A stretch of 64,000 nucleotides of DNA from an uncultured virus (IMG/VR IMGVR_UViG_3300002219_000864) (IMGVR_UViG_3300002219_000864:1-64000); one strand, 5' to 3'; counted from the first letter of the stretch, positions 1,004 through 39,146 are shown. The notes: a model not told the origin generated them from the sequence alone. Program-made: numbers and translations.

Positions 1004-4000
1004 TCATTCCCCAACCCTAAGCAACTCCCGTTTCGTCGGTACCATGACTCCCTTTATCTGTCTGCTCATCTCCGATGACCGGATGAGTGGCACCCTGCCT
1101 GCCAGACCTGCATTGATAAGGGCCTTGTTGTATTCACCCTGCTTTTTGTATATCTTCGTCAACCCAGTATTTGTCCTGTTCGGGTTAACTGCCCAGGTCC
1201 GCAGCTCTTCATAGAGAGCGTCTTTCCTTTTTACAAAACCCTGTTCTTCCTGATACATCTCGTTGCTTCTTTCCCGTGTTAACGATTGCCGGGAACTCTG
1301 AAAACCTATGACCCTTGCTGCTGTTTCTCCTACTGTCGGTTTGTACGGCTTTATTCCCTTGTCCCACAGGACACGGGTCTTTTCTGTTACGACACCTGTT
1401 TTGGCTTCCCGTATCCCCCGTAGGATGTTTGCCGCAGCTGTGGGCAGTGTTTTCTCCAGCGCCCTTCCAGTCTGTCCAGTGCTCACGAAATGACTGGCTT
1501 TCGCGATATCCTCGGCAACACCACCTATTGCACCCGTCAGGCCCAATAGCCCTGTCGGGATACCAAGTCCAATCCCCAGCGATCCTGAAATATCGACACC
1601 GGCCAAGCCAAACGTTCCTCTACGCCCTAAAACTTCAGCGTGCTCACCAAGGTATTTCCTCGTCTTGTCCCACACGAACTTGTCCACCCCTGTGGTGATG
1701 CCCAGCATTCGGAGCATGCCGTTGATAAGCCACAGTAACTCATCTTTGAACGGCCACGCAGCTCCACCGGCGATAATCAGCGGTGCAGCCAGCGCCCAGG
1801 TAAAACCAACAATGTTGTGTTTCTTTGCGCCGAGATCATATAAGAGCTCGACATAGTTGTGGCCAAAGTTGCCATAGACATACATGGCCTGCCCTACCCG
1901 TGCACTTGCCGATGTTCCCTGAGCCCATTCCGGCATGTTTGCCTTGCCATATGCTGCATGCGCCTTATCGGTGGCCTCGATCGCCGCACTGTAAGATGCC
2001 TCCACGAGTTCCTCACCGGTCAGCCCTTCCCGTTCAAAGCGCTGTTTTGCCACCTTGTATGCCGCGAGGATCGTCGTGCCCCTGTTCCACTGCTCGGTTT
2101 TGCTGAACATGAACATGGCCACTTTCATCATCCGGTCCCACGAGCGTTCAAGACCTCCCTGCATGGCACCCAACGCATCCCTGGTGAGTTGCGGGGCGTC
2201 GTACCCTTCCCGTGTGATACGCTCGGCTACAACCTGATCCTCTGCCACCAGGGTCCTTCCCGCCATGTGTTTCGCATAGGAACGGCCCGCACTCGCGATC
2301 TCTTTGTGCACGGTCACCATACTCACCTTCCCGCCACCGGCATACTGGTGGATGGCGGCAGGGGCGGATGTCACGATGGCCGTCAGGTTGACGACTGCTG
2401 AGCGCGGGTTGAACCCTAAGAATTTCAAGGTCGCAACTGCTTTTGCATACGCCATAACCCTGTCGGCGATATCGCTGTTTCTCAGGTTCTCCTCGATGTA
2501 CCGCTTCGCGGTGTCGTATGCCTTCGGTTCATTTGTAGGGTCGATCTGCTGGAGAAGCTCGGTCGCTTTCTGAGAGACCTCGCCTTTTGCCATGCCCCCG
2601 GCAACGCCCGACGTGTAGCGCAGGTATGCCTCGATGGGGTCTTCGATGTACCCCTTGACCACCCTCCCCTTGGGAACACGGTGTATCTTGGTGGATTCGA
2701 TGCCCCGCTCGCGGATCATGGTGGCGGCCTGCTCAATCAGGTCTTCGTTGAACTTCGCGAGCAGATCGGCGCTTATCGTGCTCTTCATGCCGGTCACGGC
2801 ATAGTCAATAGACTTCTGCACGTCGATCGTCCTGATGTTCAGGTAGACCGATTCCGGCAGCCTCTGGGAATCTCTCACCTTTACCTCATGGTACCCTTCC
2901 CGCTCAAGCTCCTTTGACCGCAGCTCACTCCAGTATTTGCTCCCCTGTTCGCGGATGTAGTGACGGTCCCCAAATTCGTCTTCCTTGTACGCGGTTATGA
3001 CTATGGATCCGGTCTTTCTCAACCGCGGGAAGTAGTAACCCCGCCACTGGTCCATGACCTGCAAGGCCCCCATAATGGTCTGCCTCAGCTCGGCCTTGTA
3101 ATCCTTGTGGGCCTTCCGGAAGGACTGCTTGTGGTCGTTCCACCAGTCTTCCGCTGTCTGTTCGGTGAACGCTTCCTTCGAGAAATGGATGGCCTGGACC
3201 TCCACACCCCCGGCCCGGCTGTGCCCCATGATATAATTGATCCCTTGGTGGTAGGGCAGCCCTGCCCGCTCCTGCCTCTCCTTCCCCGAAGCGGTCCAGA
3301 AACTGTCGAATTCCTTCGTGGGCCTCACGGTAAAAATGTGGAAATTCTTGGTCCCTTCCTCTTCAAGTGCAAATGGGTCCTCTTCGTATCCCTGCTCTTC
3401 GAGCTTCTTGAGCAGTTCCTTCATGGGTGCCTGCCGTGCGTCGAGCATCTTGTCGAAAGCTGCCCTGATGAGTAGAGCAACCCTTTTGACATCCTCGGAA
3501 ACCTTCATGTTTTTGATGCGGTCTTCAAAGGTCCACTCCTTCTCACGGACCCACTCAGTGTCAGCCACGATCAGGATACGCGAAAGGTCCTCGTAACCCT
3601 TCCTGTCAGTCTTTCGAAGCCTGGCCACTTCCTCGGATACGGTCGTAGCTTTCCCGGTGTCGTTGAAATCGTAAAATAACTCGTGATACGTTTCCTGGCG
3701 GTGGTGGGCCATGACGTTGAAGAGCTGCTTCAACACCGGATGTTCATACCATAAGGGGTTCTTCAGCACCCGTTCAAGGAAATGGGCGTGCGGAAGGTTC
3801 TCCGGCATGTGTGCCATGATGGTTGCCGCTGCCGCCTTCGCGTGATCACGCAGCCATCCCTTGATCTCCAAAGGCGACGCCTTGGGCTCCGGTGGGGCAA
3901 TCGCCTCGATCTGGCGCAAGATGTCATCTAGGACCGTGCTGCCCGTCGAATGACTTTCCATCGCCTTCTTGAAGTACGTCCCGGTGGTAGCCTTCGGCAT

Positions 4001-7000
4001 GACCCCGGAATAGCTTCGCGCCCGGTCAATCAGATGGAGGATGTCGGCATCAGTCCACGCAAGGTTCGGAGCTATCCTTCTCAGCGCTGCCCGAATGATC
4101 CCAAAGACCCTGGTCCATACCGGCGTGGCTTCCCGTGCCTCCGCCATGTGGGCGATGAATTCATTGACGGCAACCCTGCGGTCATCCCTGTCGTTTAAGT
4201 CGAGGGGAAGCCTCAAGGTCCCCATTTTCTGGCCGTACCCTGTGACGATGCGATCCATGAGCGGCGTCCCCTGGTATGCTTTCGCGATCTGCTGCCAGAT
4301 GAGATCCACATCGGCATTCCGAAGAATTGCGGTGATCCCCCGATGCCCGATTGTCTCATGGATGAGGGTAACGATTGCAGACCGTGCGTTCGGGATGGAG
4401 TCAGCGATGATATAGGTGGTGTCCGTTTCCTGATCGTAGGCCCCGAAGATGGTGTCCCCCTCCTGCACATACCGCATGAACCGAACCGGCAGCTCACGAC
4501 CAGACTTGATGACCTGTACCTTCCCGATGTTCTTCCACTGATTCAAGGGCAGTGCAAGGAACTGTCTCACCTGGTCCACTGAGAACCGTGGCGTCTTCGG
4601 CGGTCGGATGTCAAAGGAGAGGTTCTTCATGTCATCCGCGGTGGTCAGCTTGAGGAACGTCGGGTCTGCGTCGGGGGTTACCATGCCCCGCTTCATCATG
4701 CTACCGCCAGCATCGATGACGTCCAAAACCTGGAGGTTGGCTGCCTTCCCAAAATTGGAAATATTCCGAGCTTCCTCTTCGAGAAGCGCTCGCTGCGGGG
4801 CATATACGATCATGTTTGAGGCGTTCCTCCGCTCAGCTTCCTTAAGCAGCATGCGCTGGATCTCTCCCCGTATCGGCGTCAGCCTCTCTATCGCAATGGT
4901 ACTGATTAATTTATTGCGAACGTCGAAAAAACCTACGGTAATATTCGGGTTATCTTCTTTGATCCCGGCGAGGTTGAATATTTTTACCGCCTCGGCAGGG
5001 GATGACGCGGCCAGTCTTCCGGTCTTCTGTTTGCTGTAACGCCGCTCAACAACGGGGATCGTTTCCGTCTGCGGGCGTTTTTTTAGCATTTTGCCGGTCG
5101 TATCCCTTACCCCGCCCTCGTAGTAGTTCATTGCCACATATTCCGTCGGTGTGACGGCCATGATCCCGTGGACCGTCGCTCCCGACCCCTGGGCGAGTCG
5201 AAACAACCTATCCCCTACATTTTTGTCCTCTTCGGACAACTCCGCTACGCCAGACGGGTGGTTGTGGATAAACCATAGCCCCGTCACTCCCTCGGTGTTG
5301 AGGGCTTGCCCGACGGCCACGACAGGCTGCACGATCGACGAGGATATACCGCCCCTGCTTATGCGGTGGACGCTGTGGACAGTACCGTCGTCTTTGGTGA
5401 GGATTGCTGCGAATGTTTCCTGGGGATCGTCGAGAAGGTTGCGGGCTATCTCACTAACATCGTCAATGCTTCTAATCTTGCTTGTTCCAGCGCGATAGCT
5501 GCCGATTCTTTCAGTGAAAACTTCTTGTTTACGCGATACGGCGCTGGGTCTTCGACGAGAAGTTCGTCCGGATTCGGCGGTGTCGGTATTGAATAGCGCA
5601 CCCTGTTCTTGTGCTTTGTCGCCATACCCAAGTTTATTCTCTGCGATACTGGTTGTCAACTGGCCGCCCCCGCCTTCCACATCGAAGATGGGGCTGATGG
5701 CCAGGATTTCTTTCATTACCGCGATCCCGTCGTCGCCGGTGGGGATAAATACCCGTGTCTTATAGCTGATGCGCTCGATGAGTGCACCGCTGTGTTCAAG
5801 CTGCGTCTCGAACCGCCACAGGGTTTCGCCGGTGACTTCGATCCGGTCCATACCCTGGGTTCTCACGCGCTTCAGCGTCCAATCGTTCGCAAGCTGTATC
5901 GTTTCCCCATTGTCCAGGATGGCGTTGTATGCCTGTTCCGGCGTGTACGCTGCAGTTGACTTGTCAACATTGAGCTTTTTCAGCACACCGTTGAGGCTCC
6001 TGTCAGGAATCAGCCGGCCCAGCAGCTTTTCGCCCGTGTTGAGCTTGAGCCGCATCACCCTGACGTGTTCCTGGGGGAGCCGGTCCCATATGGGCAAGAG
6101 GGCACCGGTAATAAGGTGGATCTTTCTCGTTTTCGTCTTCGGCACCTTGTCGTGCTGTTCACCCCATATCGCTTCGGCCTTCGCCATGTCATCAATCCGT
6201 TCGTATTTTTCCCCGTCCTTAAGGTCTTGCGCTTCCACAACATGTACAGTGCCCCGGGGACTCGTGAGGGTTACGACAGCCGTCACTTCGCCGGTGCCGG
6301 TATCGGTGGTGATCCGCTCCCTGTTTGCCGCCCATACAACACCACTCTTTTTGTTCACCACATATCCGGAGGCTGCCCACATTTTACTTGTCCGAAAATC
6401 AACGGTTACAGCGTCCTCGGAGAGTTCGATCTCGTTGTACTTTGTCTGCTCTCCCTGGGGACCGGTGTACACAATTTCTTCCCGGGTCCGTTTCGCCCCC
6501 TTTGCTAAAATGGTTTCCATGCCCGCGTCGAGGGTACCGTCTGCAGCAGCCTTTTCGATGATCTTGTCAAGGTGGGCGTCGAAGGCATTAAAAACTTCCT
6601 CTTGCCGGTCCACGGTCAGCGAAAGCAGCCTGTTCAAAAATTGGGTTATCTCGGGGATGTCGTCCCTGAGCTGACCCTGGTCGTCGGTCAGCCTCATGCC
6701 CGTTTCTTGTTCAAATTCCGCCATAGACATGTTCTCAATTCCGCCGCGGTAAATCGTGTGGATGAGCCGGATGAACGCCTGCCGCGCGTGCGAATTTTCA
6801 AGGTTGTCCTTCAGCTTGAAGATGCCCTGCGTCGCCGTGTCGCGCTGCCCCTTAGTGAGCGATCCCAATTGTTCGAGACGTCGCGCAATAGAGGAGATGA
6901 ACCGTTTCTGCCCCTTCAGGTTTGTTGTGACCAGGTGAACGTAAGGAGGCTGTTTCTGGTTGCTCCGGTGGGTCCGGCCCAACCCCTGGATAGCCCGGTC

Positions 7001-10000
7001 GGCCCTCCAGCCAGGTTGCAGTAAATAATGGTGCCGCAGCCGCTGGTTCTTCTCTGTCTTGTCCGCGTGGAAGCTCCTGCCGGTTCCAGCCGCGTCGGAA
7101 AAAACGAGAAGCTGTTTCTTGTCATTCATGAAAGCATGGATGTCGTTGAGCCCTTTCGCCTTGCTCCACCGTTCCACGACCCGCTCTTTCTCGCCCTGGT
7201 CGTTTGTTTTGTCTACAAGCCTTTTCGACCGGCCCGTTGCCTCCGCTGCCTTCTCGATGCCAAAATGGCGGATAATCATGTCAAGGGGTGCATCCGGCAC
7301 CTTCAGCATGCCGAGCCTCCGCAGCAGCGCGTCGCGCATGGCCACGGCTTCCCGGTTGATGACGGGGTTCCCCTTCGAGTCGAGGACAGGGCGCGAACGA
7401 ATATTTCCGTTGTCGTCGGTGTACTCTTCATATTGCTGGACAGGGAAGCTGTGTTCCAGGTAGTTCATCAGCCCCTCACGCGGGGTGAGATCGAGGTCTT
7501 CCAGACGTTCCCCCTCCTCCCGTCTGGCCATCGCCCGGTCGGTTTGTGCCTCGTTTGTGTTCACGAGCTGCACCACGGCTGCGTCGCCGTCGGCGAGGTT
7601 CTTCTCTATAGCCTTGATGACTGTCGGGGTCTGCATGGACGTGATGATCTGGTTGAAAAACCGCTGATGCGCGCCCCAGAATGCGCCCATGACATTCTTT
7701 CTGGCGTTGCCGTTCCTCGTGATGACCTGCCCGGTGTGGTTGGTCGCGGTTACGCCTGTCGCCTGGAGTGCGGCGTGGATGTTCTGCAACACGATCTGCC
7801 ATGACCGGGCCATCTCATCGTAAATGGCCTTCTGGTTCTCGGTCAACTCGTGCTCGATAGTTTCGTACTTCACCCCGTCAAAGGAAAGGTTCCGGGCACT
7901 ATAGGATCCCATGGCCTTGAGCCCCTGGGCGATCATTTCCATGCCGGCGATACCAGCACCGGAAATCTGCTCGATGAAATTCCGCTTGTTGGAAAAAGGC
8001 GTTCCCTTCCCCCACAACCCGAGGTGATCGCAGTAGGAAAGGTTCGCAACTTCCGTTGCACCCGTTGCTGACGCATAGACAACCCGCGAATTGTATAGAC
8101 GCGACTGCAGCTCAACGCCAACGACCGCCTTCATGGACGGCTTTTTCGTCCCCCGCTTCCCCCTGGTAGACAGAGCGTTTCCCATGTTGTGGGATTCGTC
8201 AAATGCTATGACACCGTCGAAATCCTCACCAGTCCACTCGACGACGGGGTCAATCCGGCGCGCCGCGCCTTTTTTGTACTTTAACGTGTCGTAGCTTATG
8301 AAAAGGATACCCTCTTTCTGCTTGATGGGCTGGCCGAATTTCACGGTGGCATAATCTATTACCAGGTTCGGGTCCATGCCGAGTGCTATAAGATCGCGCT
8401 TTGCGTCGTGGATAAGGTCCGTATTCTGGCTTATCCAGAGAGCCCTGCGCCGGCCCCGATTCCAGTTATCGAGGATGATGCCGGCGATCTCCCGGCCCTT
8501 GCCCACTCCGGTGCCATCACCGATGAAGAATCCCTTGCGGAATGTGTGGAACGTTTTGCCTTCCTGGCTCCCGCTGCTTGCAACGTTGCCTTGTGCGTCA
8601 AGATAGACGCCGGAGTCGAGGGTTTCCCCGTGGGCCTGTCCGGCCATGGTGATAGCTTCGAGCTGGACGTCGCTTAATGCACCGGTTTCAGCGAGTTTCT
8701 TGTCGATATTTGGCACATACCGAGTTTTTGGAGCTTTTACGGTGGCCATCGCCGCACTTTCAACAAGTTCCGCCGGGTGCGGCTGCGCCCCATCAATTTT
8801 TATGGAGGGCGTGTATTCCTCGAAGATGTTGCCCGATTCGAGGTCTTCGTCTGAATATTCTTCGGTTTGTTGAACGGTAAGGGCTGGCTCGGGGGTTAGT
8901 AATTTGCCGCTTCCAGCATGCTCGTCAGCTGGTCTACTACCGCCCACGCCAGGTCTTCCGCTGATATCGTCGGCAGCTCTCTCTGGTCCGCCAGGTCCCC
9001 GTCCCTCTGGAGCAGTCTCCAGGCCCGTTTCGGTTCCAGCCCCGCCAGCTCCTCGAAGAAGGGGTATACCTCCTGGCCCCGGACGCTGTTGAGCGGGACC
9101 CTGCCCGCGTTCCACTGTTCCTCCACCAGCTGGAGGCAATACAGCATCGACGGGTCGGGATCCTTGAGAAACTTCTTCGCTGCCTGGTTGAGCGGATGGT
9201 TGTTCTGTGACACTGTTTCTCGCATCGCGTACTCCTTTCAGGAGGGCAACGGCATGTTTGATGTCGCTGACTTCCTCTTGTATTACTGTAGCATTCATTT
9301 TCGATTTGTCAATCACGATCAAGCGGTTGTCATAGGTGGTGCCGTATTTTTTGTAGCCCTCGCCGGAGATGGTGATATCGGCGATTACGTCATTGGTGAC
9401 ATCGATGTTGTCCAGCCACTCGTTGAAAGTTTTCGATTCGCCGAACAACCCCTTGCCGGTGAGCACCACAAGACGCCCACCTGGCTTAAGCCTCGACAAC
9501 GCCTGGCCAATATGCCTGATGAGGTTCTCGGGGCTTCTGCGCCCCTGCATCCGGCCTGCCGTTGCAGAAAAGGGCGGGTTCATGATGATTACGGTGGGCT
9601 TTATGTGATCTGGAAGGATGTTATTGAGCTGCTCGCCGTTCTCGGTGAACACCTGCCCGAAACCCATCTGCCGCAACATGCTTGCCCTCCGCTGCGAAAG
9701 TTCATTAACGTACACCTTCGCCCCTGCGTTCCGGGCAAACACCGCGAGGCCGCCCACACCTGCCGATGGCTCCAGGACCGTCTCCCCCGGCTTGATGTTC
9801 GCCACCCATGCCATGAGGAAAGCCAAATCCGGGGGTGTCGAGAACTGCTGGTACTCGTCCATCTCCTTTGTTCTGAAGCCATGCTGCGAGGGGATCTTGT
9901 CAAGGACGTGTTCCCGTATGCTGTCAATCGTGTCACGGGCGTCGATGACCATGCCTCTCGTGGGATCGTATAAGCGCTGGCCCTGTCCGAGGTAGCGGTT

Positions 10001-29479: not shown

Positions 29480-29548
29480 GATAGCCCTCCTTTATAAGGG
29501 GACCGGGGCGCGGAATCATGTCCCGTTAACGCCCCGGTTTATACACGG

Positions 29549-30007
29549 TTATGCGTAGGTGTTTAGCTCGTCTTCGATGGTGTCTCCCATCTTGTAGAAG
29601 ACGTTCATGAAGATCGTCTGATTCACCTCAAGGGTATCACCGAGCCACTTCACGTCGATGGTGTCGTCGGCGGCATACTGATAGTTTTCAACGCACGCCA
29701 TGTCGCCATCTTCGTGGTAGTCGCTTCTGATCGGGCCACTCGACGGGTCAATCCCATCGAGAAACCTGTCAACGGTGGTTCCGTCGCCCACGTCGAAGGT
29801 CCTGCCTGCGCCTGAGTCGCCCACGAACATGTGGATGTCGAGGATCTGCGCCCCCTTCGGTACCGGAACCATCTGAACGACGCTGTTCGCATCGAGGGCG
29901 GCTGCTGCCTTGTAATACCCGGTCCTGCACAAAACAACGCCGGCCCTTCTGTCGTCGGGTTTGATCCCGGCTAATACTGCACTTGACTGCACGGTTACTG
30001 CTGCCAT
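29549..30007 (-). CDS. Putative head decoration/cement protein
   Basis: 152 aa directly after the capsid gene; VPKGAQILDI...DVGD...DRF.DG pattern. Confidence 0.6.
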   Translation of the reverse strand: MAAVTVQSSAVLAGIKPDDRRAGVVLCRTGYYKAAAALDANSVVQMVPVPKGAQILDIHMFVGDSGAGRTFDVGDGTTVDRFLDGIDPSSGPIRSDYHEDGDMACVENYQYAADDTIDVKWLGDTLEVNQTIFMNVFYKMGDTIEDELNTYA

Positions 30008-30024
30008 GGTATCACCCCCTTATC

Positions 30025-31104
30025 CTATGCGTTCGGGTTGATGCAGTAAGTGTCCACTGCAACGACCCCGAAGTCTTTGCTGTTGTACCGGGACTTCTTC
30101 ACGCCGTAGATGGTGCCTGCAGTAATAGCCAGCGCGTTGCCCCTGTCGTCCGTCTCCTCGTTCCAGGTGTACCGTCCGGGGGCGTTGTTCCCGCCCCAGG
30201 CGATGATCCCCGCCTGCGCGCCGAGCAGAAGCGCCCTGGCTGCGGGCTGTGCTCCGTCGGAGCCGTAGTCGGAAAAGCGGATCACGTTCCGGTGCTTGTG
30301 CATGACAATTCCGTTGTAGCTGCCCAAAGCGTTCTTGTAGATCAGGCTGTCCTTGCCGTCGGTGTTCTTGTGGATGTCGATCCAGTCGTTGGCGCTCACC
30401 GAAGCCCTGAGATCAAACGCCTGCCACACGTGCATGAGCAGCACGTATTCAAGCTCTCCGTCCACGGAGAAGGGGAGCATGACCGGGTCAACCGTTTCCA
30501 CGGAGGCCACGGCCTTGTCGCAGATGGTGAGGTCCATCTTGTCGCCTGAGTCGAGGTCAGCCTTGCCGGTTGCGTTCCCTCCGTAGAAGATGTGGTTTGA
30601 GTCCGGCACGGTCAGCGCATTGCTCGCCCGACCGGTGAAGCCCAGCGGCGCGTGCAGCGACGCATCGATCCCTCTGGCGCCGGCGAGGTACATCATGATC
30701 TGCTCGTCATAGTCCTCTGCCCACCACGTGGCAAGGGCGTCGCGGCCTTCTTTCCTCATGTTGTAGGGGACGCGCTGCTCGGACATCTGGCCCTTGGACT
30801 TGGTGCCCTTCCTCCTCTGGTCGATGTAGAGCGCATCGTAGAAGAAGTTGAGGGCCTCTTCCGCACTCGTTCCCTCGATGATGTTGTCGCCCTCGGTGCC
30901 GTCCCCGGCCAGTTTCATTCTGAGGCCCACGGTGATCATCTCACCGGCCTTCTTGGACAATTCCTGCTGAATCTTGATCAGCGCATTCTCGTCGGTGCCC
31001 ATGAACTTCCGGAAGTACTGCTTCTTCTCGGCTTCCACGGCCAGCGACGTGCTCCACCGGCGCACTGCCAATGGGTCGTTTAATGGAAAATCTGTTGCTG
31101 CCAT
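30025..31104 (-). CDS. Major capsid protein, N4-gp56/DUF4043 family
   Basis: ELSKKAGEMITVGLRMKLAGDG.EG, IDQRR, RALLLGAQA, EE.DDRGN, G.KKSRYNSKDFGVVAVDT. Confidence 0.9.
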   Translation of the reverse strand: MAATDFPLNDPLAVRRWSTSLAVEAEKKQYFRKFMGTDENALIKIQQELSKKAGEMITVGLRMKLAGDGTEGDNIIEGTSAEEALNFFYDALYIDQRRKGTKSKGQMSEQRVPYNMRKEGRDALATWWAEDYDEQIMMYLAGARGIDASLHAPLGFTGRASNALTVPDSNHIFYGGNATGKADLDSGDKMDLTICDKAVASVETVDPVMLPFSVDGELEYVLLMHVWQAFDLRASVSANDWIDIHKNTDGKDSLIYKNALGSYNGIVMHKHRNVIRFSDYGSDGAQPAARALLLGAQAGIIAWGGNNAPGRYTWNEETDDRGNALAITAGTIYGVKKSRYNSKDFGVVAVDTYCINPNA

Positions 31105-31127
31105 GTTCGTTCTCCTTATTTAGGGTC

Positions 31128-32213
31128 TTATCTGCCCTGGAGGTACCGCTCCTGTTCTTCCGTTGACATCCGCGCCATTTCCGCCTCGGTAACGACCCGG
31201 TTGGGGTCGTTCGGCACGGACGATCCGCCGGGAGGGGTGCCCCCGATATTGCGATAGCCCGTTGTTGTGTTGTGTATTTTCCCCAGGAGCTCTGCTGCCC
31301 CCTGGGCCTTCAGTAAATCTTCCTTTGTTAAATCAGGCTTCACAGCCTTGTATGCGTTGTTGAGCAGGGTGAGCATCTGCACCGCCCCTTTCCCGAGGAG
31401 TACTACGCGCCCGTCCTCCCCGACGATGCGGGTGGTGGGGTCGGTCAGGACGGAGACGAACGTCTCGTCCATGCCGTTGTCAGCCGCAAACCTGGTGAGT
31501 GACTTGTTGACGTCACCATCCTCGGCGAATATCCCCGGCACCGCCTGTTCCATCTCGGTGTAGCGCTGCTGGATCAGGGCCTTCGTCTGGTGCTCAGCGG
31601 CCTTCCTCTGCTGCTCTTCCTTCTGGTTCTGTTCCTCCTGCTTCTGAAACCGGTTCAGGTTGTGGAGGTAGATCTGGGCTTCCACCAGGTCGTTCTCGGC
31701 AAGCTCGCGGTACTCTTTTGCGCTCAATACCTTGAAATCCTGGGGCAATCCTTCCTCTTCCCTGGCCTGCACCTCTTCTTTCTGCGGCTGTTGTTCCTCT
31801 GCCGGTTTCCCCTGGGACAGGGTCGCAACCGCTGCCTCAAGTTCCTGAATCCGTGAGGACATTGCCTGCCGTTTGCCCCGTTCCTCGTGGAGCGCTGCCA
31901 GCGGCACGTATCCCGTTGGAGGCTTCACCGCCTCTTTTGTTTCTCCTTCCCGGGGGGCATCATTGCGTTCCTCGGGGGGCGGCTCTGCGTCCTCCGCGTT
32001 TTCGGGTTGTTCCCCGCTTTCCGCTGGTTCTTCCAGGGTTTCCCCTGCTGGTTCCTCGCCCATGAGTTCGGCGTCGGTCACGGTCTCCCCGAACAGCGAG
32101 GATGTTACGGTTTCGTTCTCGGGCGCACGGCTCTCTGCTGCGTCCTGAACGCTCGGGTCATCACGCTGATCCGCGGCGTCGGTTGGTGCTTCTACTGCTG
32201 TGTTTGTTTCCAT
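31128..32213 (-). CDS. Capsid scaffolding protein
   Basis: Acidic N-terminus, VPLAALHEERGKRQ, coiled coil, C-terminal MSTEEQERYL; immediately upstream of the capsid gene. Confidence 0.8.
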   Translation of the reverse strand: METNTAVEAPTDAADQRDDPSVQDAAESRAPENETVTSSLFGETVTDAELMGEEPAGETLEEPAESGEQPENAEDAEPPPEERNDAPREGETKEAVKPPTGYVPLAALHEERGKRQAMSSRIQELEAAVATLSQGKPAEEQQPQKEEVQAREEEGLPQDFKVLSAKEYRELAENDLVEAQIYLHNLNRFQKQEEQNQKEEQQRKAAEHQTKALIQQRYTEMEQAVPGIFAEDGDVNKSLTRFAADNGMDETFVSVLTDPTTRIVGEDGRVVLLGKGAVQMLTLLNNAYKAVKPDLTKEDLLKAQGAAELLGKIHNTTTGYRNIGGTPPGGSSVPNDPNRVVTEAEMARMSTEEQERYLQGR

Positions 32214-32306
32214 GTGTCACTCCTTTTTCTGCCTGCTCTTTTCCGGGTTGCAGGCCCCCGAATGTATGGTGCCGGTATTCGCTACCGGGAAAGCGTCACA
32301 ACGAAA

Positions 32307-32371
32307 AGCCCCCTGAAGACCGGTACGTCACGAAGGGAAGTGTTTCCCATGCGTACCGGTTCCAGGGGGCT
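32307..32371 (-). other. Long intergenic stem-loop before the scaffold-capsid genes
   Basis: AGCCCCCTG(GA)ACCGGTACG...CGTACCGGT(CTT)CAGGGGGCT enclosing GGGAAACACTTCCC, followed by TTTCGTT on the minus strand. Confidence 0.6.
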
Positions 32372-32439
32372 CATTTTAAGCGCGCTGGCTGCCCTTGATA
32401 CCGCTTACTTTTGCGGCGGGCGATATGTGCGTTTTTGTC

Positions 32440-32760
32440 TTATTTCATGGTTGCGGTCTCCCTGGCCGCTTTCACCTTATTCACAACGTCCTTGACTACA
32501 GACACGATCGCCATGATTGCCCCGTGGGCCTGGATGCCGATGGTAGTGAGCAGGACGATGGCGTCACTGGTTTCGTTCAGCGCGGTCTCATCGATGGACA
32601 CGCCGAAGAACTCCCGCACTATCTGTCCTATCAGAATAAGGACTGGCCCCACCGCCTTCCTTGACAGCAGCACGCCGAAGATCTTCCCGATGGAATACTC
32701 TGCCGCGATGGCGGCCCTGGCGTCTTTAAACTTCGCATACAGCTTGAGATATTTCATCAT
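32440..32760 (-). CDS. Holin-like membrane protein
   Basis: 106 aa, two hydrophobic segments, LLSRK motif, in the lysis cluster. Confidence 0.5.
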   Translation of the reverse strand: MMKYLKLYAKFKDARAAIAAEYSIGKIFGVLLSRKAVGPVLILIGQIVREFFGVSIDETALNETSDAIVLLTTIGIQAHGAIMAIVSVVKDVVNKVKAARETATMK

Positions 32761-32763
32761 TGC

Positions 32764-33063
32764 CTATTCCTCTGTCTTGAGCTTCTGGACCGCTGCCTCG
32801 ATCGCTGCATAGATCATGGAGGTCGTCACCTGGACGCCGAGGGTGATGCCCTGCCCTTTCAGGTCGGTTACTATGGCATCGAATGCCGCTTTCCTCTTGT
32901 CGTTGCCGTCAGCGTCTCCCATGGTTTGGGCCATGGTCTTCACTGCCGCTATGGCCGACGCTGCCAGTATGTTCCCCGCGCTCGACAGAAACACCCTGAC
33001 GAAGGGCGCAAGAAAGTCCCATATCCTGGAAAACACGAGCTTCAGTTTCTCTGAAAATGTCAT
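32764..33063 (-). CDS. Holin-like protein (LL-H-like)
   Basis: DGNDKRKAAF...IYAAIEAAVQKLK pattern; near the endolysin. Confidence 0.55.
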   Translation of the reverse strand: MTFSEKLKLVFSRIWDFLAPFVRVFLSSAGNILAASAIAAVKTMAQTMGDADGNDKRKAAFDAIVTDLKGQGITLGVQVTTSMIYAAIEAAVQKLKTEE

Positions 33064-33065
33064 GG

Positions 33066-33206
33066 TTATTCTCCTTTGCGAAACAGTTTCTTGAAGAATT
33101 TCGCGATGGTGTCGTCCCAGTTCCAGCGGAAAGTCTTGCCGATCCTGACAACAAATCCACCGTTTTTGAGGTCATCACGTTTCGCTATCTCTTCTATTAC
33201 ATTCAT
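33066..33206 (-). CDS. Hypothetical 46-aa protein
   Basis: MNVIEEIAKRDDLKNGGFVVRIGKTFRWNWDDTIAKFFKKLFRKGE*, GGGAG SD; below the ORF-track cutoff. Confidence 0.45.
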   Translation of the reverse strand: MNVIEEIAKRDDLKNGGFVVRIGKTFRWNWDDTIAKFFKKLFRKGE

Positions 33207-33222
33207 GGAGTTGCTCCCCTGT

Positions 33223-33810
33223 TCATCCATTCAGCACGCTCCGCACCTTCTCGCGGAAGATGCCGCGAAATGTCGTATCTTTGTCAGCCTCTGCCAGCAT
33301 CAACCGAATCCGCGTTATGGCCTGGCTGGTCTCGTACCACTCACAGAGTGCAGCCGATGCTGCCAGGACAGACAGAGCCCGCCTGGTCAGCCCCCGGAAG
33401 AATCCCACGTATCCCGGCAGCCGGTCCGCAAGGGACAGGTAGTAGGTGATCTGGTGGAGGGCAAACCCGTTGATGTTCGGTGATTTCCTTAATAATTCCT
33501 TAGCCCTGAAGGGGCCGGAATTGAATGCGAAGTCCGTCGTCTGAACATCCTGGCCGGGTGGTAATGTATCCGCCTTTACCCGGTTCCAGAATTCCTTCTG
33601 GTACACGTCGAGGACAACGTTGTCCGTCACGAGGTAAACATCGTCCACGGTCACACATCCGTCATGGTTGAGGTCCAGCCGCAAGTTTTTCATCAGCCCC
33701 AGGGTGAGACCCATCTTGGTAGGGCCACCCCGGTCGTTCGGGTCGTTCACAAACACGACGCCCTCAGCGAGCATGGTGGTTCTGAATCCGTATACAAGGT
33801 TTTCCTTCAT
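33223..33810 (-). CDS. Endolysin, glycoside hydrolase family 108
   Basis: EG..FVNDPNDRGGPTKMGLT, Y..EFW, D.AFNSG motifs. Confidence 0.85.
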   Translation of the reverse strand: MKENLVYGFRTTMLAEGVVFVNDPNDRGGPTKMGLTLGLMKNLRLDLNHDGCVTVDDVYLVTDNVVLDVYQKEFWNRVKADTLPPGQDVQTTDFAFNSGPFRAKELLRKSPNINGFALHQITYYLSLADRLPGYVGFFRGLTRRALSVLAASAALCEWYETSQAITRIRLMLAEADKDTTFRGIFREKVRSVLNG

Positions 33811-33991
33811 GTGCTATCCTCCTGCACTCCGGACACAAGGTATGGTGTTCGCTGTACCCGTTCCTTGTAATCTCACCCCACTCATCATCTGTAAGATGAG
33901 CCCAGTGAGGCAACCGGTCACCCCTGCGGTACTTCTGGACGCGCCCGCACACGGAACAAATTTTGAGAACAATCCGGAATACCCCATGTCG

Positions 33992-34216
33992 CTATCCTTT
34001 CTGCGGGATTACCACGTTCCCGCCTCCGTTGTGCCGGTGGTAGTTGACCCTGTCCCACAGTTCCCGGTGGGCTTCTTCATTTTGCCTGCACATTTCCTTC
34101 ACGTGATCCCGCAGCTCCTTTTTCCATGCCCGCAGCGATGTGAGCATGATGCCGAGCAGCGCCACCCCTGTCGCAGAAAACCCTGTCAGCAATGCCAGCC
34201 ATGCGTTCTCCCCCAT
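33992..34216 (-). CDS. Small membrane protein with coiled coil
   Basis: N-terminal TM segment then CRQNEEAHRELWDRVN. Confidence 0.5.
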   Translation of the reverse strand: MGENAWLALLTGFSATGVALLGIMLTSLRAWKKELRDHVKEMCRQNEEAHRELWDRVNYHRHNGGGNVVIPQKG

Positions 34217-34224
34217 AGCCGCTC

Positions 34225-34458
34225 CTATTCGCACGGCCTGTTATAGTCAAGTCGGAGCCTCGCATGGTCGGTGAACTCAACCGTTTCACCGTTTGACAGT
34301 GTGACGCGCCACTTGCTGCCCACCTTTGCCACCTTGGTGGCGCAGTACTTCTCGTAGGTGACCTGGTGACCATCCTCTGTCTGGGTGATGGTGTCGATCC
34401 GGTCGCCCACGAGGATGAACCCGGCAAATCCGACAAGGAACAGTGCCAGCTGCTTCAT
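34225..34458 (-). CDS. Hypothetical exported 77-aa protein
   Basis: MKQLALFLVGFAGFILV...; coupled to the upstream gene (TGATG). Confidence 0.5.
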   Translation of the reverse strand: MKQLALFLVGFAGFILVGDRIDTITQTEDGHQVTYEKYCATKVAKVGSKWRVTLSNGETVEFTDHARLRLDYNRPCE

Positions 34459-34850
34459 CACCTGGCCCCCTGAAGGATCGCAGCAACCTCTGCTGCCTTC
34501 AACCCGGTCGGTGCCGGGAGGGGAATAGTGGTGGAAATCTCGTTCGAGGGACCCGACTCCAGCGAGCCAAGGTACGCTGTCATCACGAAAAACTTTGTGC
34601 CCGGTGATACGTTGGCCAGGGTGTATGTGGTCGCAGTCTTCGGCGTGATGGTTGCCACGCGGTTGGCCGCAACAATCTGGACCCCTGCAGCTGTCCCCAT
34701 GTAAAGGTGAAACCCGTCGGCCTCGGAGGTGTAGCTGTCCCACGCAAATTTGAGATCCGCTGCGTGTGCCATCACAGCCACGAGAAGGGCAATCATGATG
34801 GCGAAGAGCGCTGCACAAAATATCCTGTTCATCATCCTGTTTGTGTCCAT
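34458..34850 (-). CDS. Secreted fibronectin type III domain protein
   Basis: Signal peptide ending AHA, then FAWD...GFHLY...TYTL.N..PG..FFVMTAY..LESGPSNE; AAAGGAG SD. Confidence 0.7.
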   Translation of the reverse strand: MDTNRMMNRIFCAALFAIMIALLVAVMAHAADLKFAWDSYTSEADGFHLYMGTAAGVQIVAANRVATITPKTATTYTLANVSPGTKFFVMTAYLGSLESGPSNEISTTIPLPAPTGLKAAEVAAILQGAR

Positions 34851-34863
34851 AGTGGTTCTCCTT

Positions 34864-35049
34864 TCATATCCCAACGCCTGGGGCGCTGGGGAAGATTCGG
34901 TCAAAGTTGTGCCGGTAGTGCGCTAAATCCGCCTCGTTGTTAAACCGAAACGTGTTCCACCGGAAATCCCGTCCATGGGGCAGCTCCCGGTGGCTGCGAA
35001 AATGCCGCTCTGCCCTTGCCTCGAATACTGCTTCCTCGTGTCGTGTCAT
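34864..35049 (-). CDS. Hypothetical 61-aa phage protein
   Basis: YRHNFDRIF motif; ATGA overlap with the reconstructed portal stop. Confidence 0.55.
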   Translation of the reverse strand: MTRHEEAVFEARAERHFRSHRELPHGRDFRWNTFRFNNEADLAHYRHNFDRIFPSAPGVGI

Positions 35050-37143
35050 GCTGTGCCTCCTGCTGCCATTGCCTTCCGGTATCCGTTGCCGATAGCCGCC
35101 TTCTTTGCTGTTTCCGGGTTATATCCGGTCCTTGTGGCGATCATGTCTTTCTGCATGTCATACCCGGCCCGGATTCCTCGCAGGNNGGGCCGCGTCGTCA
35201 CGCTTCACCCTGTCGCCTGCCCTGAGCGACTCGATCTCGGCAGTGAGCTTTTGGTTGACGAGCTGGAGGTTCTCAAGCTTGAGCCGCAGCGCCGCCTCCT
35301 CTACCTGGGCAGCTTTTGCCTGTGCCGCCTTCTGCGCCTCCAGCTGCTGCGCAACCTGGGCCTTGATCTCTTCCGGGCTCCTGTTCTGGTCGTCGCCCTC
35401 GATGCCGATGATGGGCCTGATCCGCGCCATGAGCTGGTCCTTGTTGGGGAGGTTCGATATCTCCATGGCCGCGTTCATGAGGTACGGGATGATCTCGGGC
35501 GGGCTCTTCTTCACCCACTCGATGAGCATGTTGAGGTGCTGTTCTCTCACGGTGTCGGTTGCCGGTGCCTCGGAGACGACGCAATCGAACTTGCCCTGGG
35601 TGATGTTGTTGTGCAGGACGACCTCGCCCATGGGACCCTGCTCGCGCTTGTTCAGGTGCACCCACTTTCTGGCACCCGTGAGCCTGTCGGTGACCCGGAG
35701 GATCTTCTCCCCCCTCCACTGGCTCTGGACCTCGGGGATGATCAGCTCTCCAAGACGCTTCTCAGACCGTCTCTTGTTCCCAAAGATGGGCGCGAGGATG
35801 GTGTTGCCCTGCTGCTGTTTGCGCTCGATGGCCACACCGGAAACCTGGCTGGATTTGTACCCGAGGGAATCAGCGTTCGCCCCGGACACCTCCTGGATCT
35901 CCCGCTCCGATTGCAACAACAAATCGACCTGGGGGCGGTACAGTTCGGCCATCTCCTCAACCTTGACGGCGTTGATCTTGCCTTCCTTGACCACGATGAA
36001 CCCGTCGAGCTTGTTCGCCTCTTCGTAGATGTCCTGGAGCTTGGTGGCGTCGTCCACCACCTTCTCCTCCACGGTCACCCGCCTGCTCTTGAGCAGCGCC
36101 AAAGCCATTGACCGGCGCTTGTTGATCTCCTCGTTCTGGCCCCGGAGGTTGCGCGGGACACCGTAGGGGTAGTTGAACCGGTCAAGATATCCGTAGAACG
36201 GTATGAAGGGATACTCGTCGTGTCTGTACGGGCTGTACCCCCAGTTAAGCACGATGTCGCCGAGGAAGGTGATGGTTTTGATCTTCGGGACCTGCGCCTT
36301 GACGACCTCCTGTGCGGACAGGACAGCCTGCCGCAGGAAAAGGGGGTCGGCGTCTCTCGTGAGCTCAATGGAATCCCCGTTGGCGAACCTGGCCCAGAGG
36401 CCTTCCTCGTACACGCAATACCACAGCTCCACAGGCCTGACCCGCTTCCTGCCATAGGCGTTGATGGCAACCCGTTCCTTCATCTCTTCGATCAACGTTG
36501 ACTCATCCACAACAGCTCCGCGGGACATGCTGCCCCTGCGGGACAGCTCGTGATACTCCTCAAAGGCATCCCGTAATTCCTGCTTTTTCTCGGGGAACTG
36601 CGTGATCAGCCAGTCCAGGTCCTTCCAGGGCTGGTAGTAGACGTAGCGGCACCCGTTGGCCGACAGCCACGGGTCTCCGAAGGGGTCCCACCCCATGTCC
36701 TTCCAGTCGTGATACTGAACCCACACACGCTCCCTGCGGGGGTCAGGGTTATGACTGATTGACAGGAACCCTGCTCCCGGTATGACACTGTCCTTGAATG
36801 CCTGCGATACCAGCGCTGGGCCGTTGTACTGCTCCATGATGTAGCGGACCGCCTCGGTCATGGTGGTGCTGATCTCCGCGTCGTCCTGGGTGCGTCCCTC
36901 GATGGTGATGTCGTTCTTGTTTATCTGCTCTGACCCTAAAAGAAGATTGACCACGGGGAATGTCCGGTTGATGGTCAGGGGGTCAATGCCCGCTTCTTTC
37001 GCCTTTCGATAGTCTTCTTCAGTCCACTGCTTGCCGTCGTAGATCTCACAGTCCCGCCATGCCTCTGCGCGCCACGCCTCAGACACAAGCATGGACTCGT
37101 AGACGAAGTCCTGGATCTCTTTTAACGTGTAGTCGCCGGTCAT
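35046..37143 (-). CDS. Portal protein (P22/N4-like)
   Basis: YDGKQW, PLTINR..P.VN...G, PFIPFYG, Q.EINKRRS, SGVAI. Start MTGDY overlaps the terL stop. Past the NN at 35185-35186 the alternative frame runs to TGA at 35046. Confidence 0.9.
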
Positions 37144-38648
37144 CGGCTTCTCCTGGGGACGAAACCGGAATTGCTTGTGCCTCCCATGCTGCCGGAGGCA
37201 ACCGCAAGGGTAAGGAAGGCGTCTGCGGGGTTGCTGGCCCAATCGTGGAGGGGCTCCTGCTTGTAGCAGCCATTTTTGTCGTCCCATGCCTTCCGGTATG
37301 CTTCCAAGCCCTTGATGCCGTCACTGCAATGCACCTCGTCGAACCAGCAGAACTGGAGGAAGTTCCTGGCCGCCTCGATCTGGTCTGCCTTGGCCAGCTT
37401 CGGGGCGACGGTAAAGTCGATGCCGTAGGTGGCTGCCTGCTCCTTCCTGGTCTTGCCGGTGCCAAGCTCGTGGACCTCGATGTCGTGAGGGGCGAAGTGG
37501 CCGCCGTAGTGGTACTCACGGTCGCGCAGCACCTGGGCATAGTGGGCGAGGCCCTCACCGTTGTTCTCATAGAAGTCGATGATCCTCCACTGGTGGCCGT
37601 GGTGTTGGGCGAACCAGATATCGGTGGTGTCATCCATGCCGAGGTCCCACGCGGTGTAGACCGTCAGGCCCTCCTCGTAGGGGACGACGGTGATGCGGTT
37701 CTCCCGGTAGACGCGCTCAAACTGGTGGGCGAAATATGCCCCCTCCAGGCTCGCCTCGAAGGCCTCGTCGAAGGTCGAGGGGTACTCGCGTTTCATGTCG
37801 GTTCCCTGGAGTTTCCACTTGAGGTAATACCAGGCTTTCTGTCCTTCGGTCAGGGTAATGCTCTCGCTCGCTTCGATGGAGCGGAAGTATACGTTCATGG
37901 ACTCGGGGATGACGATGTTTTTCGGATCGACGCTGTTCTTGGCGTCGTGGTACCAGGGGAAGAAAAAAAGCCGCCATTCGAGGGAGGCGAGCTTGCCGCC
38001 CCGCATGCCGCTCTTGTGGGCATCGGTGCAGTAGTCGTAAAAGTAGCCGGACTTGCCTTCAGCCGTCGACTCGATGGTGATGACCTGTCCCGGGTGGACC
38101 GTGTTCAGCGATCCGGTGACAATCTCCTTTGCCTTGTCCGGGTACTTCGCGCAGATCTTGCCGAACTCCGATATGTGCAAAAGCTGCAACGTAGAACCGC
38201 GAAGCGAGGTGCCGACACGGATCGCGCTGTTGTTGCCAAACGATAGCTCTCGTGCGCTCCGGGAATCAGCAGGAACCATTCCTTTGACCTGGTCCGGGAG
38301 GTTGTCGTAAGCGTACTTGATCTTGTCGTTGAAGAAGATCTCCGCGTCGTCGCGGGTATGGGCGATGATGCCGGCCCGGATGTTCGGGGTGAAGAGGCAG
38401 TAATCGAGGTAAAGGATGCAGATGTCGGTGGTGATGCCGTGCTGGCGTGACTTCAAGATCAGGTTGAGGTACCAGAGGCTGTGGTTGAGGTGGTGCTGGA
38501 TGCCGTTGGGCTGGAACAAAACGCGGTTGCCCTTGGCGTCGATAATGTAATAGAGGTTGTTCAGGCGCCACTCACGGTCGCCCAGGCGGTCGAGTGATTC
38601 ATCATGATAAAACTGCTGCAACGCTTCCGCTTCTTCAGTCATTGTCAT
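37140..38648 (-). CDS. terL: Terminase large subunit
   Basis: LKSRQHGITT (Walker A), LHISEFG (Walker B), ESTAEG, AWDLGMDD and SNPADAF nuclease motifs. Confidence 0.93.
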   Translation of the reverse strand: MTMTEEAEALQQFYHDESLDRLGDREWRLNNLYYIIDAKGNRVLFQPNGIQHHLNHSLWYLNLILKSRQHGITTDICILYLDYCLFTPNIRAGIIAHTRDDAEIFFNDKIKYAYDNLPDQVKGMVPADSRSARELSFGNNSAIRVGTSLRGSTLQLLHISEFGKICAKYPDKAKEIVTGSLNTVHPGQVITIESTAEGKSGYFYDYCTDAHKSGMRGGKLASLEWRLFFFPWYHDAKNSVDPKNIVIPESMNVYFRSIEASESITLTEGQKAWYYLKWKLQGTDMKREYPSTFDEAFEASLEGAYFAHQFERVYRENRITVVPYEEGLTVYTAWDLGMDDTTDIWFAQHHGHQWRIIDFYENNGEGLAHYAQVLRDREYHYGGHFAPHDIEVHELGTGKTRKEQAATYGIDFTVAPKLAKADQIEAARNFLQFCWFDEVHCSDGIKGLEAYRKAWDDKNGCYKQEPLHDWASNPADAFLTLAVASGSMGGTSNSGFVPRRSR

Positions 38649-39060
38649 TCACCAGTCCCGTTGCCTGTCCGACGATCTCTTCGTAGAGCATCTGGAGGGG
38701 TCCGCCGCCTGCCCCGGTGATCTCCCGCTTCTCAGCCGGATAGTCCCCGCGAAGCTTGTGGGCGTCCATGCGGGCGCGTTGCCGTATATCCCAGGCTATC
38801 TCATCCCACTCGATGACAGTTTCCCCGTCGCCGAATGAATCTTTGTCCTTTGTCTGTATGATTGTTCCTGACGCAGCCACTATACGCCGGCCCTTAACAA
38901 GCTGGTCGGCATTGACGGCACCCTTAACTTTGATTGATTTCGTGACCTTGGCCCTGAGCTCCCTCTTGAGCAGCTTCGTCAATGTGGGCAATGTGAGCCC
39001 GTTCTGTTCGAAATACTCAAGGGCTGATGGTCCATGTACTTCGTCAAGTGTCGCAGGCAT
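38635..39060 (-). CDS. terS: Probable terminase small subunit
   Basis: 141 aa overlapping the terL start; C-terminal KREITGAGGGPL typical of TerS. Confidence 0.7.
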   Translation of the reverse strand: MPATLDEVHGPSALEYFEQNGLTLPTLTKLLKRELRAKVTKSIKVKGAVNADQLVKGRRIVAASGTIIQTKDKDSFGDGETVIEWDEIAWDIRQRARMDAHKLRGDYPAEKREITGAGGGPLQMLYEEIVGQATGLVNDND

Positions 39061-39067
39061 GATTGCG

Positions 39068-39096
39068 AGGATAAAACAACGCTCTTACCCCGTCAA
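39068..39096 (-). promoter_or_regulatory. sigma70-like promoter directly upstream of terS (probably leaderless)
   Basis: TTGACG (39096-39091), 17 bp, TATCCT (39073-39068), 7 nt, ATG; no SD. Confidence 0.6.
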
Positions 39097-39107
39097 AAGG
39101 CTATAGT

Positions 39108-39146
39108 GGCGGCAATAAGAGCGGTAGCTCAAGGGCGGCAATCAGA
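39108..39146. repeat. 13-bp direct repeat pair upstream of the terS promoter
   Basis: GGCGGCAATAAGA (39108-39120) and GGCGGCAATCAGA (39134-39146), 12/13 identical. Confidence 0.55.

Follow-up and report, generated by a model that had tools for sequence, protein, structure and literature searches.

We analysed a 64,000-nt stretch of DNA from an uncultured virus (IMG/VR IMGVR_UViG_3300002219_000864), hereafter the window, which makes up bases 1–64000 of one 78,958-bp record, classified as a provirus, and carries a block of phage morphogenesis and lysis genes on its minus strand (39,060 to 1,004). At a probability of roughly 0.85, we read this block as the late half of a temperate short-tailed prophage that is a distant relative of Bcep22 (Lessievirus) and of Ralstonia phage GP4, with a host that probably belongs to the Desulfobacterota. 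What appears to be a particle operon free of early genes would thus be an effect of the 64-kb window edge and of a large cargo that splits a normal prophage. The analysis documents a lineage of distant Bcep22/GP4 type whose nearest genomic relatives are Desulfobacterota genomes and metagenome-assembled genomes, and which carries a 5173-aa polyvalent virion-protein gene.

Read along the minus strand, the record begins with a helix-turn-helix (HTH) regulator, followed by recombination and replication genes (contig 78,958 to 66,594). Next come an accessory defence cargo of ~27.4 kb, encoded on the opposite strand (contig 66,593 to 39,177), a conserved leader of ~115 nt ahead of terS, and the late operon (39,060 to 1,004) in the order terS, terL, portal, lysis, capsid, adaptor, tail and giant polyvalent protein. 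Small toxin-antitoxin-like cargo and the 3' end of corA follow the giant gene. The late and early blocks are close in GC content (0.56 and 0.54), the island lies lower at 0.476 and the left flank lower still at 0.41. We take the early and late genes to belong to one phage.

The original prediction, made on the window, had offered three alternatives: a domesticated particle operon resembling a gene transfer agent (GTA), a prophage that had lost its early region, or a prophage whose early genes lie beyond position 64000 with a defence block of more than 24 kb before terS. The third is the one borne out. The block had also been described as uninterrupted from terS to the giant gene, which the minus-strand open reading frames (ORFs), gapless from 39060 to 1004, confirm, and as having a divergent defence operon as its right neighbour, where a plus-strand defence block was indeed found. 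As for the claimed lack of replication, integrase and repressor genes, it holds within the window (no matches to such families among the 26 late proteins and pieces scanned) and fails beyond it, where the record has replication genes and an HTH_3 regulator; an integrase is absent from the whole record.

Early genes beyond the window and the one-element question

The early block (contig 66,594–78,958) shares its strand with the late genes, all of its genes being on the minus strand. They include an Hjc/VRR-NUC resolvase (by family match), an SSB (PF00436, 7e-31), a Toprim-DnaB primase-helicase (phrog_239, 8.5e-78), a replication initiator (phrog_16167, 7.5e-42), a Gp3-like protein and the SbcC-like (1.3e-40) and SbcD-like (2.3e-27) parts of a putative SbcCD-like nuclease. 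The HTH_3 regulator stands at the very end, its start codon being the record's last base. Contig 72,179–73,765 (L001 10179–11765), within this block, encodes a ParB-like N-terminal region fused to DUF5131; PADLOC candidate models PDC-M41B and PDC-M30B match the DUF5131 portion too (~3e-36).

In more distant members of the terL lineage, homologues of the early proteins directly precede terL. Those of the SSB (44% identical), initiator (46%) and primase-helicase (24%) lie ~2–5 kb upstream of terL on the same strand in locus L029, and those of the resolvase (37%) and initiator (33%) lie directly upstream of terL, again on the same strand, in L044. Of the 15 loci scanned, 8 had replication genes no more than 10 kb upstream of terL; the 15 were taken from 22 with usable upstream sequence (64 found; L012, L016, L019, L023, L027, L057 and L059 were left out).

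Moreover, a capsid search of bacterial genomes returned four relatives, all of them Desulfobacterota records. One of them, a 1.3-Mb Desulfobaculum contig (G004), has a whole prophage of ~56 kb with its modules arranged as in the present record; its left part follows host MutS with cargo (an HNH gene, a 1219-aa Schlafen/AlbA_2 protein, Dcm and another HNH gene). Its middle consists of a 3401-aa giant gene, late genes, terL, an 843-aa AAA protein and AbiEi-type cargo on the opposite strand, and its right part of a GH108 lysin, VRR-NUC, SSB and a replication initiator. The SSB (40%) and initiator (35%) homologues stand ~9–11 kb upstream of terL, with other genes intervening. The prophage ends in a divergent set of a cI-like S24 repressor, a Gam-like gene, a C5 methylase and a 417-aa integrase (phrog_1, 1.3e-11), followed by host genes. 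This integrase was detected by PHROGs only; the tyrosine-recombinase matches of G004 lie outside the prophage, the nearest at C12:982 kb. Because of this synteny, a repressor and an integrase would be expected just past contig 78,958, beyond the record's right end. Integrase families PF00589, PF00239 and PF07508 were found in none of the close relatives G001–G003, and a search of terL against genome contigs gave 55 pattern matches, none of which was confirmed. In L015 (6897–7925), a distant terL relative, a tyrosine integrase lies ~2 kb upstream of terS, so that module order varies across the wider lineage.

These observations bear on the possibility that the record spans two neighbouring elements, with the early genes belonging to another prophage or island and the late block being a remnant beside a chromosomal defence island. 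Defence islands commonly adjoin mobile elements, the island differs in GC and lies on the opposite strand, and no close relative has early and late genes on one record, which would all suit such a reading. However, the two blocks share a strand and are alike in GC (0.54 versus 0.56), both being unlike the flank (0.41), and no integrase, att repeat or host housekeeping gene was found between them. The same early-protein homologues precede terL in L029, L044 and the Desulfobaculum prophage, and the other three close relatives also have defence cargo at exactly the same spot. Two separate elements are improbable on this evidence.

The full replication and recombination set, 27 kb upstream and on the same strand, also speaks against a domesticated GTA-like operon or a prophage without an early region. 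Cognate early genes just outside the window had been named in the original prediction as the finding that would tell against a GTA, and genes of that appearance lie there; a lost early region does not agree with early genes on the same record (contig 66,594–78,958). Both readings could draw on the lack of replication and lysogeny genes within the window and of an integrase in the record, and purifying selection on the late genes is also expected of a domesticated operon. Yet the host neighbours vary (corA here, HU in G001, MutS in G004), and therefore the locus is not fixed or vertically inherited, which favours a mobile phage. Moreover, dS ranges from 0 to 1.1 between adjacent late genes, an unevenness that we read as phage-type mosaic exchange, and a 15.5-kb counter-defence-type gene together with a variable fibre suits an infectious phage. 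With GTAs of the RcGTA type the element shares a head-tail-lysis block without adjacent replication genes, and this inside the window only; it differs from them in having early genes on the same contig, variable chromosomal neighbours, podophage architecture and a capsid protein of a T=9 family. We give these two readings next to no weight. A Mu-like transposable phage was also considered and set aside, no transposase-type family having turned up among the scanned early genes.

A chimeric assembly, in which the contig would wrongly join a phage late region, the island and the early region of another phage, has to be weighed because the record is metagenome-derived and holds two NN gaps (20584–5 and 35185–6). 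A second assembly consists of contigs of run X1 placed on 20001–40000 (X1 contains 99% of the sampled words); X1 is possibly the source sample, and hence not independent support. This assembly breaks at ~27,000, at a variant bubble, and at ~40,217, which would fit a chimera. In contrast, one of its contigs (13,181 nt) covers 27,033–40,000 with 0 mismatches, extends ~217 nt further and bridges the terS/island junction, at an even depth of 13.4–13.9 that equals the rest of the late region, and the gene order of the record agrees with that of its relatives. A misassembly at this junction, which by the original prediction would void the observation, is thus contradicted over 39,060–39,705, bridged with 0 mismatches, as far as a run that may be the source sample can tell. 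We regard a chimera as highly improbable. A further run, X2 (share 0.06), gave short pieces only, mostly 90–95% alike.

The two N-associated shifts, noted from the start, both resolve as assembly gaps and not as gene breaks. Behind 20585 the second assembly is longer by 10 letters, and at 35183 it is shorter by 4. Adding 10 nt puts the ORFs of 575 and 396 aa into one frame, (22178 − 20502 + 10) being a multiple of 3; no stop interrupts the 396-aa frame before the NN, and the fibre-like homologue is a single ORF in G001 (955 aa) and in G002 (827 aa). For these reasons we place the shifts within one fibre-like gene of ~959 aa and in the 3' end of the portal gene. At 26,917–27,062 the second assembly holds two 146-nt variants, at depths of 11.5 and 3.7, and both long contigs stop there, which points to strain variation where the adaptor gene meets the 927-aa gene.

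Several observations weigh against reading the record as one integrated phage of the Bcep22/GP4 type. Early and late genes occur together in no close relative, the records of G001 and G002 stopping in the cargo, and a search of the viral collection with the early primase-helicase and SbcD-like proteins confirmed no close relatives. Support from the second assembly covers the terS/island junction; the left junction and the island/early junction (contig ~64.8–66.6 kb) lie outside it, and the run that bridges the former may be the source sample itself. No matches to the integrase families PF00589, PF00239 and PF07508 were obtained across the whole record, nor was a cI-type repressor. Comparing the left end with contig 64–79 kb, and the island junctions with each other, gave longest shared words of 12–13 nt; no word of 14 nt or more is shared, in agreement with the absence of an att repeat noted originally. 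It is the corA end and the provirus label only that point to integration. The giant protein, compared with Bcep22 gp75 by BLASTP, matched at the methyltransferase motif NPPF only (E 0.01). Finally, the distance from the giant-gene stop to the record end (77,955 bp) is ~130% of the ~60 kb expected of the lineage.

The late operon and its affinity to isolated phages

The capsid protein is 40–44% identical to those of Bcep22-like Burkholderia and Ralstonia podophages. Homologues of all three hallmark proteins were found in Bcep22 itself, at 42–44% identity for the capsid protein, 39% for terL and 30% for the portal. The closest solved capsid is that of Ralstonia podophage GP4 (PDB 8h89, E 2.8e-87), which has T=9 symmetry and a diameter of ~740 Å, as described in PMC9698820. 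The Bcep22 late operon ends in a 4602-aa gene annotated 'DarB-like antirestriction', and JC1, which together with Bcep22, BcepIL02, DC1 and BcepMigl makes up the named members of Lessievirus, is described as temperate, with headful packaging, a serine recombinase and a DarB-like gene that takes up 22% of the genome (PMC9144972).

The giant last gene of the present late operon resembles that of Bcep22 in position, in size class (above 4,000 aa) and in encoding a methyltransferase, and may be of the same DarB-like kind. The element differs from Bcep22 in that the giant proteins are not alignable past the NPPF motif, in that its lysis genes lie between the portal and capsid genes and not at the genome end, and in using a primase-helicase where Bcep22 has an initiator with a DnaC-like loader. 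Genomes of the Bcep22 type are 61–64 kb long and the present element at least 78 kb, and no recombinase was found in the present record. Set against the expectation of a ~55–64 kb genome with recombinase and repressor, the phage part measures 77,955 bp and shows an HTH_3 regulator only; the record may end before it reaches the lysogeny module.

Megablast of 12.1 kb of late genes against isolated phages gave one match of 385 nt (72%), and membership in Lessievirus was rejected on that ground. Judged by sequence, the element is a distant relative of the Bcep22 group and not a Lessievirus. The best match of the primase-helicase to isolated phages was 31%, in Tunturiibacter phages, and no Bcep22-like phage was among the best 12 of 1030 records; as sequence matches go, those of the primase-helicase do not tie the early module to the Bcep22 group. 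A relationship with SU10/Kuravirus was also rejected, the adaptor domain alone matching.

All 24 late gene pieces are syntenic in the proviruses G001 and G002. The ratio of non-synonymous to synonymous substitution rates (dN/dS) over these 24 pieces is mostly 0.05–0.25 (range 0.015–0.58, with one undefined because dS = 0), and the late genes are intact and under purifying selection. Tape-measure, sheath and tube families did not turn up among the late-protein family matches, which is consistent with a short-tailed phage.

The operon starts with a small terminase candidate of 141 aa (38635–39060, like all late genes on the minus strand), so named by its position directly upstream of terL; it gave no family match and is 84–90% identical in all close relatives. 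The large terminase follows (37140–38648; phrog_2472, 7.4e-90, and phrog_2, 5.1e-28; 39% identical to the Bcep22 terminase), and then a P22-like portal gene (35158–37287; PF16510, 2.2e-109), whose 3' end is affected by the NN at 35185–6. The predicted lysis cassette (32440–33810; matches to phrog_315 and phrog_6918) comprises a GH108 endolysin (33223–33810; PF05838, 1.3e-15), a holin (32764–33063; PF09682, 9.5e-8) and a 106-aa gene. Between it and the capsid gene lies a 361-aa gene (31128–32213), 84–93% conserved and without a family match, which is a scaffold candidate by position.

The major capsid protein (30025–31104) matches PF13252 (6.7e-51) and phrog_334 (1e-93) in addition to the GP4 capsid; it is 99% identical in G001–G003, with a dN/dS of 0.015–0.021 versus G002 and G001. 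Four small head or connector genes (28027–30007), syntenic in relatives, come next. The 152-aa gene that adjoins the capsid gene is a candidate for a cement protein by position, because GP4 cement protein gp1 and capsid protein gp2 have adjacent gene numbers in PMC9698820. The putative head-to-tail adaptor (27067–28026) resembles that of SU10 (PF24175 SU10_adaptor, 1.1e-11; phrog_399, 5.6e-16), and a PDB search with it gave no usable match. The 927-aa structural gene behind it (24272–27055) is 88–94% conserved with a dN/dS of ~0.10 and received no PDB or family assignment; its position makes it a tail or nozzle candidate.

Four small genes (136, 135, 124 and 215 aa; 22256–24275) are syntenic in G001 and G002, with dN/dS of 0.06–0.21, and gave a single family match, phrog_644, of unknown function. 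They are followed by the tail-fibre-like gene of ~959 aa (19312–22178), which appears as two ORFs owing to the NN at 20584–5 and whose N-terminal half is the most variable late segment (56–66% identity). Two genes of 456 and 462 aa (16540–19298) may encode internal or ejection proteins, by position only; they are conserved at 95–96% in G002 and 61–73% in G001 (dN/dS 0.13–0.23) and have no confident family match.

The last late gene (1004–16525) is a single open frame of 5173 aa for a putative polyvalent virion protein. It is open in G001 and G002 as well, at 89–91% identity, with a dN/dS of 0.11–0.14. Four domains were predicted in it: a DNA methyltransferase domain at aa ~2214–2428 (9242–9886; phrog_15406, phrog_6263 and others, down to 3.5e-19, with the NPPF motif seen), a Strawberry-notch-type helicase (AAA_34 and Helicase_C_4) at aa 2582–3337 (6515–8782; PF13872, 2.6e-107, and PF13871, 4.4e-82), a RadC-like JAB domain at aa 3685–3800 (5126–5473; PF04002, 9.6e-14, and phrog_10276) and a C-terminal PLxRFG 'tail-700' domain at aa 4497–5135 (1121–3037; NCBIfam NF032893, 2.8e-34, 118.6 bits against a cut-off of 100). 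An HExxH motif was also spotted by eye. In tblastn, the PLxRFG domain matches Klebsiella podophage genes annotated 'PLxRFG protein / DarB-like antirestriction'.

With the polyvalent proteins of phages and conjugative elements (Iyer et al. 2017, PMC5512222), whose prototype is P1 DarB, the giant protein has in common the union of DNA methyltransferase, superfamily-2 helicase and RadC JAB domains in one polypeptide, as well as its encoding within a portal-terminase late operon. Several effector-type domains thus occur in one polypeptide beside the portal-terminase system, as in that class. At 5173 aa the protein stands at the large end of it, and its C-terminal 640 aa, the PLxRFG 'tail-700' domain, set it apart. 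By analogy with DarB, it would be packaged and injected as a counter-defence protein.

Two side observations concern this gene. L047, whose terL is distantly related, has a polyvalent gene of more than 2127 aa (2–6385) with InPase, LPD39 and RadC domains. The end of this gene lies ~3 kb upstream of terS, which fits a circularly permuted order with the giant gene as the last of the late genes. In L009 (G001:C1), positions 852–1037 hold a remnant of ~62 codons that is 58% identical to the extreme C-terminus of the giant gene and has one internal stop; it lies past the AbiEi/AbiEii pair and adjoins the HU gene. It may have been left behind by an earlier related prophage, or by an insertion of cargo at the 3' end of the gene.

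The terS-proximal cargo spot

In a four-way alignment of G000, G001, G002 and G003 (G001 being aligned as L010; L003 is the same element), ~115 nt before the terS ATG are near-identical and the sequences beyond are unrelated. Homology to the relatives ends with this conserved leader (39061–39176, minus strand), at a boundary of ~39,176. Unlike cargos here adjoin the packaging genes of four elements whose capsid protein is 99% identical, and the spot is a prophage defence hotspot, with four cargos in four elements and a sharp boundary; the comparison covers the terS-side boundary. The leader contains a TTGAC(G/C) motif and a T-rich hexamer, of which 4/6 and 5/6 positions, respectively, are invariant across the four sequences, and the late operon would have its own promoter there. 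Promoter and terminator scans at 38,900–39,800 and contig 64,000–67,000 gave nothing above shuffled controls.

In the present element the cargo (39,177–66,593, ~27.4 kb) lies on the plus strand, opposite to the late genes. It opens with a 953-aa SNF2 helicase and a 1569-aa type IIG restriction-modification enzyme (39705–47275; Pfam SNF2-rel_dom and Eco57I), which overlap at stop and start. The helicase matches PADLOC DrmD (6.4e-102), and the enzyme matches REase_MTase_IIG (4.4e-300) from residue 50 to 1565, against profile positions 42–1575 of 1584, and far more weakly DrmMI (1.3e-48); it would be a full-length fused endonuclease-methyltransferase of type IIG. The next gene (47275–52779) encodes a 1834-aa protein of the Tiamat type (Pfam SACS, HATPase_c_3 and NOV_C), whose residues 5–1833 match positions 12–1781 of the 1782 in the PADLOC TmtA profile (3.2e-252), corresponding to the single full-length TmtA of a predicted Tiamat system. 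From 47,275 to 53,000, TmtA and the spacer downstream have a GC content of 0.38–0.44 versus 0.45–0.55 in the rest of the island. The island looks pieced together from different origins.

Further genes at 53052–62597 encode a 355-aa DUF932 protein (PF06067, 1.6e-47; TIGR03299, 1.3e-56), a 2104-aa DruE-like helicase with DEAD and MrfA-Zn parts (PADLOC DruE, 2.8e-109) and a 715-aa UvrD-type helicase (GajB-like, 5.6e-36). A 187-aa ORF and a DUF5677 gene (PF18928, 2.3e-22), the latter running to contig 64172, occupy the end of the window (62714–64000).

Two multi-gene systems suggested by these matches were rejected. For DISARM class 1, in which DrmA, DrmB and DrmC accompany DrmD and DrmMI, matches to DrmD (6e-102) and DrmMI (1e-48) are present, but the methylase fits type IIG far better. 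The SNF2-type DrmA model weakly matched the DrmD-like helicase, where DrmD scored higher; the 2104-aa helicase, the sole DrmA/B-type candidate, reached 7e-15, and no PLD gene was found. For Druantia, DruE is matched but no neighbour matched the DruA–D, DruM/F/G or DruH models. Neither system being complete, the defence matches are model matches and not proven systems; still, the island may shield the lysogen from other phages. Searches of the viral collection with the type IIG and DruE-like proteins of the island confirmed no relatives.

The relatives carry other sets at this spot. The cargo of G001 comprises a split Mrr-type type IV enzyme, an 891-aa methyltransferase, an AAA_5 protein and a McrBC-family component, that of G003 a PLD nuclease (DrmC-like, 4.8e-15), and that of G002 a cNMP-binding protein resembling Pycsar effector sensor domains (2.5e-9) along with unknowns. 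The G001 Mrr gene is split into two overlapping ORFs, Mrr_N and Mrr_cat (L010 731–1659), possibly through a frameshift or as a pseudogene. A second, smaller cargo spot follows the giant gene, with the toxin-antitoxin-like pair here, AbiEi/AbiEii in G001 and Schlafen/Dcm/HNH in G004.

Hotspots of temperate phages and satellites such as P2 and P4 likewise hold unrelated defence systems at a fixed spot (PMC9122126, PMC13586616), and the one described here is a new instance of this known phenomenon. It differs in its phage group, probably in its host phylum, and in a cargo of ~27 kb that matches several different defence families. What is documented, then, is a sharply bounded cargo spot adjacent to terS with a different defence set in every close relative.

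Element size, packaging and record ends

A cargo of this size raises the question of how much accessory DNA a headful phage can take up before it is stranded in its host. If CheckV completeness is taken as length over expected length, the values for relatives (79% for the 47,266 bp of G001, 67% for the 40,351 bp of G002 and 20% for 12,143 bp) imply an expected genome of ~60 kb. Isolated relatives measure 55–64 kb, and those contigs of terL relatives that are possibly whole genomes 54–63 kb. With the missing lysogeny module, the present element would come to ~83–87 kb.

Within the reading of an integrated phage, and not as an exclusive alternative to it, the prophage may be over-length, or 'grounded': the 27-kb island would exceed T=9 headful capacity, all modules would be present, and no full terminally redundant genome would be transmitted, so that the element would persist mainly as a carrier of defence genes. 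For this speak the 77,955 bp of the phage part, with probably several kb more past the record end by analogy with G004, the ~60 kb expectation with its support from isolates and contigs, and the 99% identity of the capsid protein among relatives. Bcep22-like phages are described as packaging by headful (PMC9144972) and phage cargo as limited by capsid size (PMC13586616). On the other side, all late genes are intact and under purifying selection, capsid capacity is not readable from sequence, and the truncated records of the close relatives do not give their total size. In other phages, such as N4, a T=9 head can hold more than 60 kb. We put the over-length prophage forward tentatively, the odds being somewhat against it.

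A more far-reaching version seems unlikely to us, if still worth stating. The island would overload a T=9 headful podophage to ~130–140% of lineage length, making full packaging impossible and anchoring the prophage as a defence-island carrier. Its particles would be incomplete headfuls that start near terS, functionally nearer to transducing or GTA-like particles than to infectious phage, and the terS-proximal hotspot would be a general defence reservoir in podophages of sulfate-reducing bacteria.

At the left end, the original prediction had placed a toxin-antitoxin pair and corA. The latter is upheld: positions 1–120 (plus strand) hold the last 39 codons and the stop of a corA-like gene, either host flank or a displaced gene end, and window 1–117 matches the C-terminal 39 residues of CorA chains over their full extent (E 5e-6). 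The pair is weakly supported. The two overlapping small genes on the plus strand (376–967; 376–660 and 638–967) may be toxin-antitoxin cargo at the prophage end, the second matching CopG_antitoxin (E 3e-4) and NikA-like (E 2.5e-4) models, both below cut-offs, and the first matching phrog_38250 (2e-11), of unknown function; PADLOC, NCBIfam and PDB searches gave no support for either. The record starts exactly at an in-frame ATG inside the CorA C-terminus and stops exactly at the HTH gene's start codon, so that both ends look cut at called-gene boundaries rather than being contig ends or att sites.

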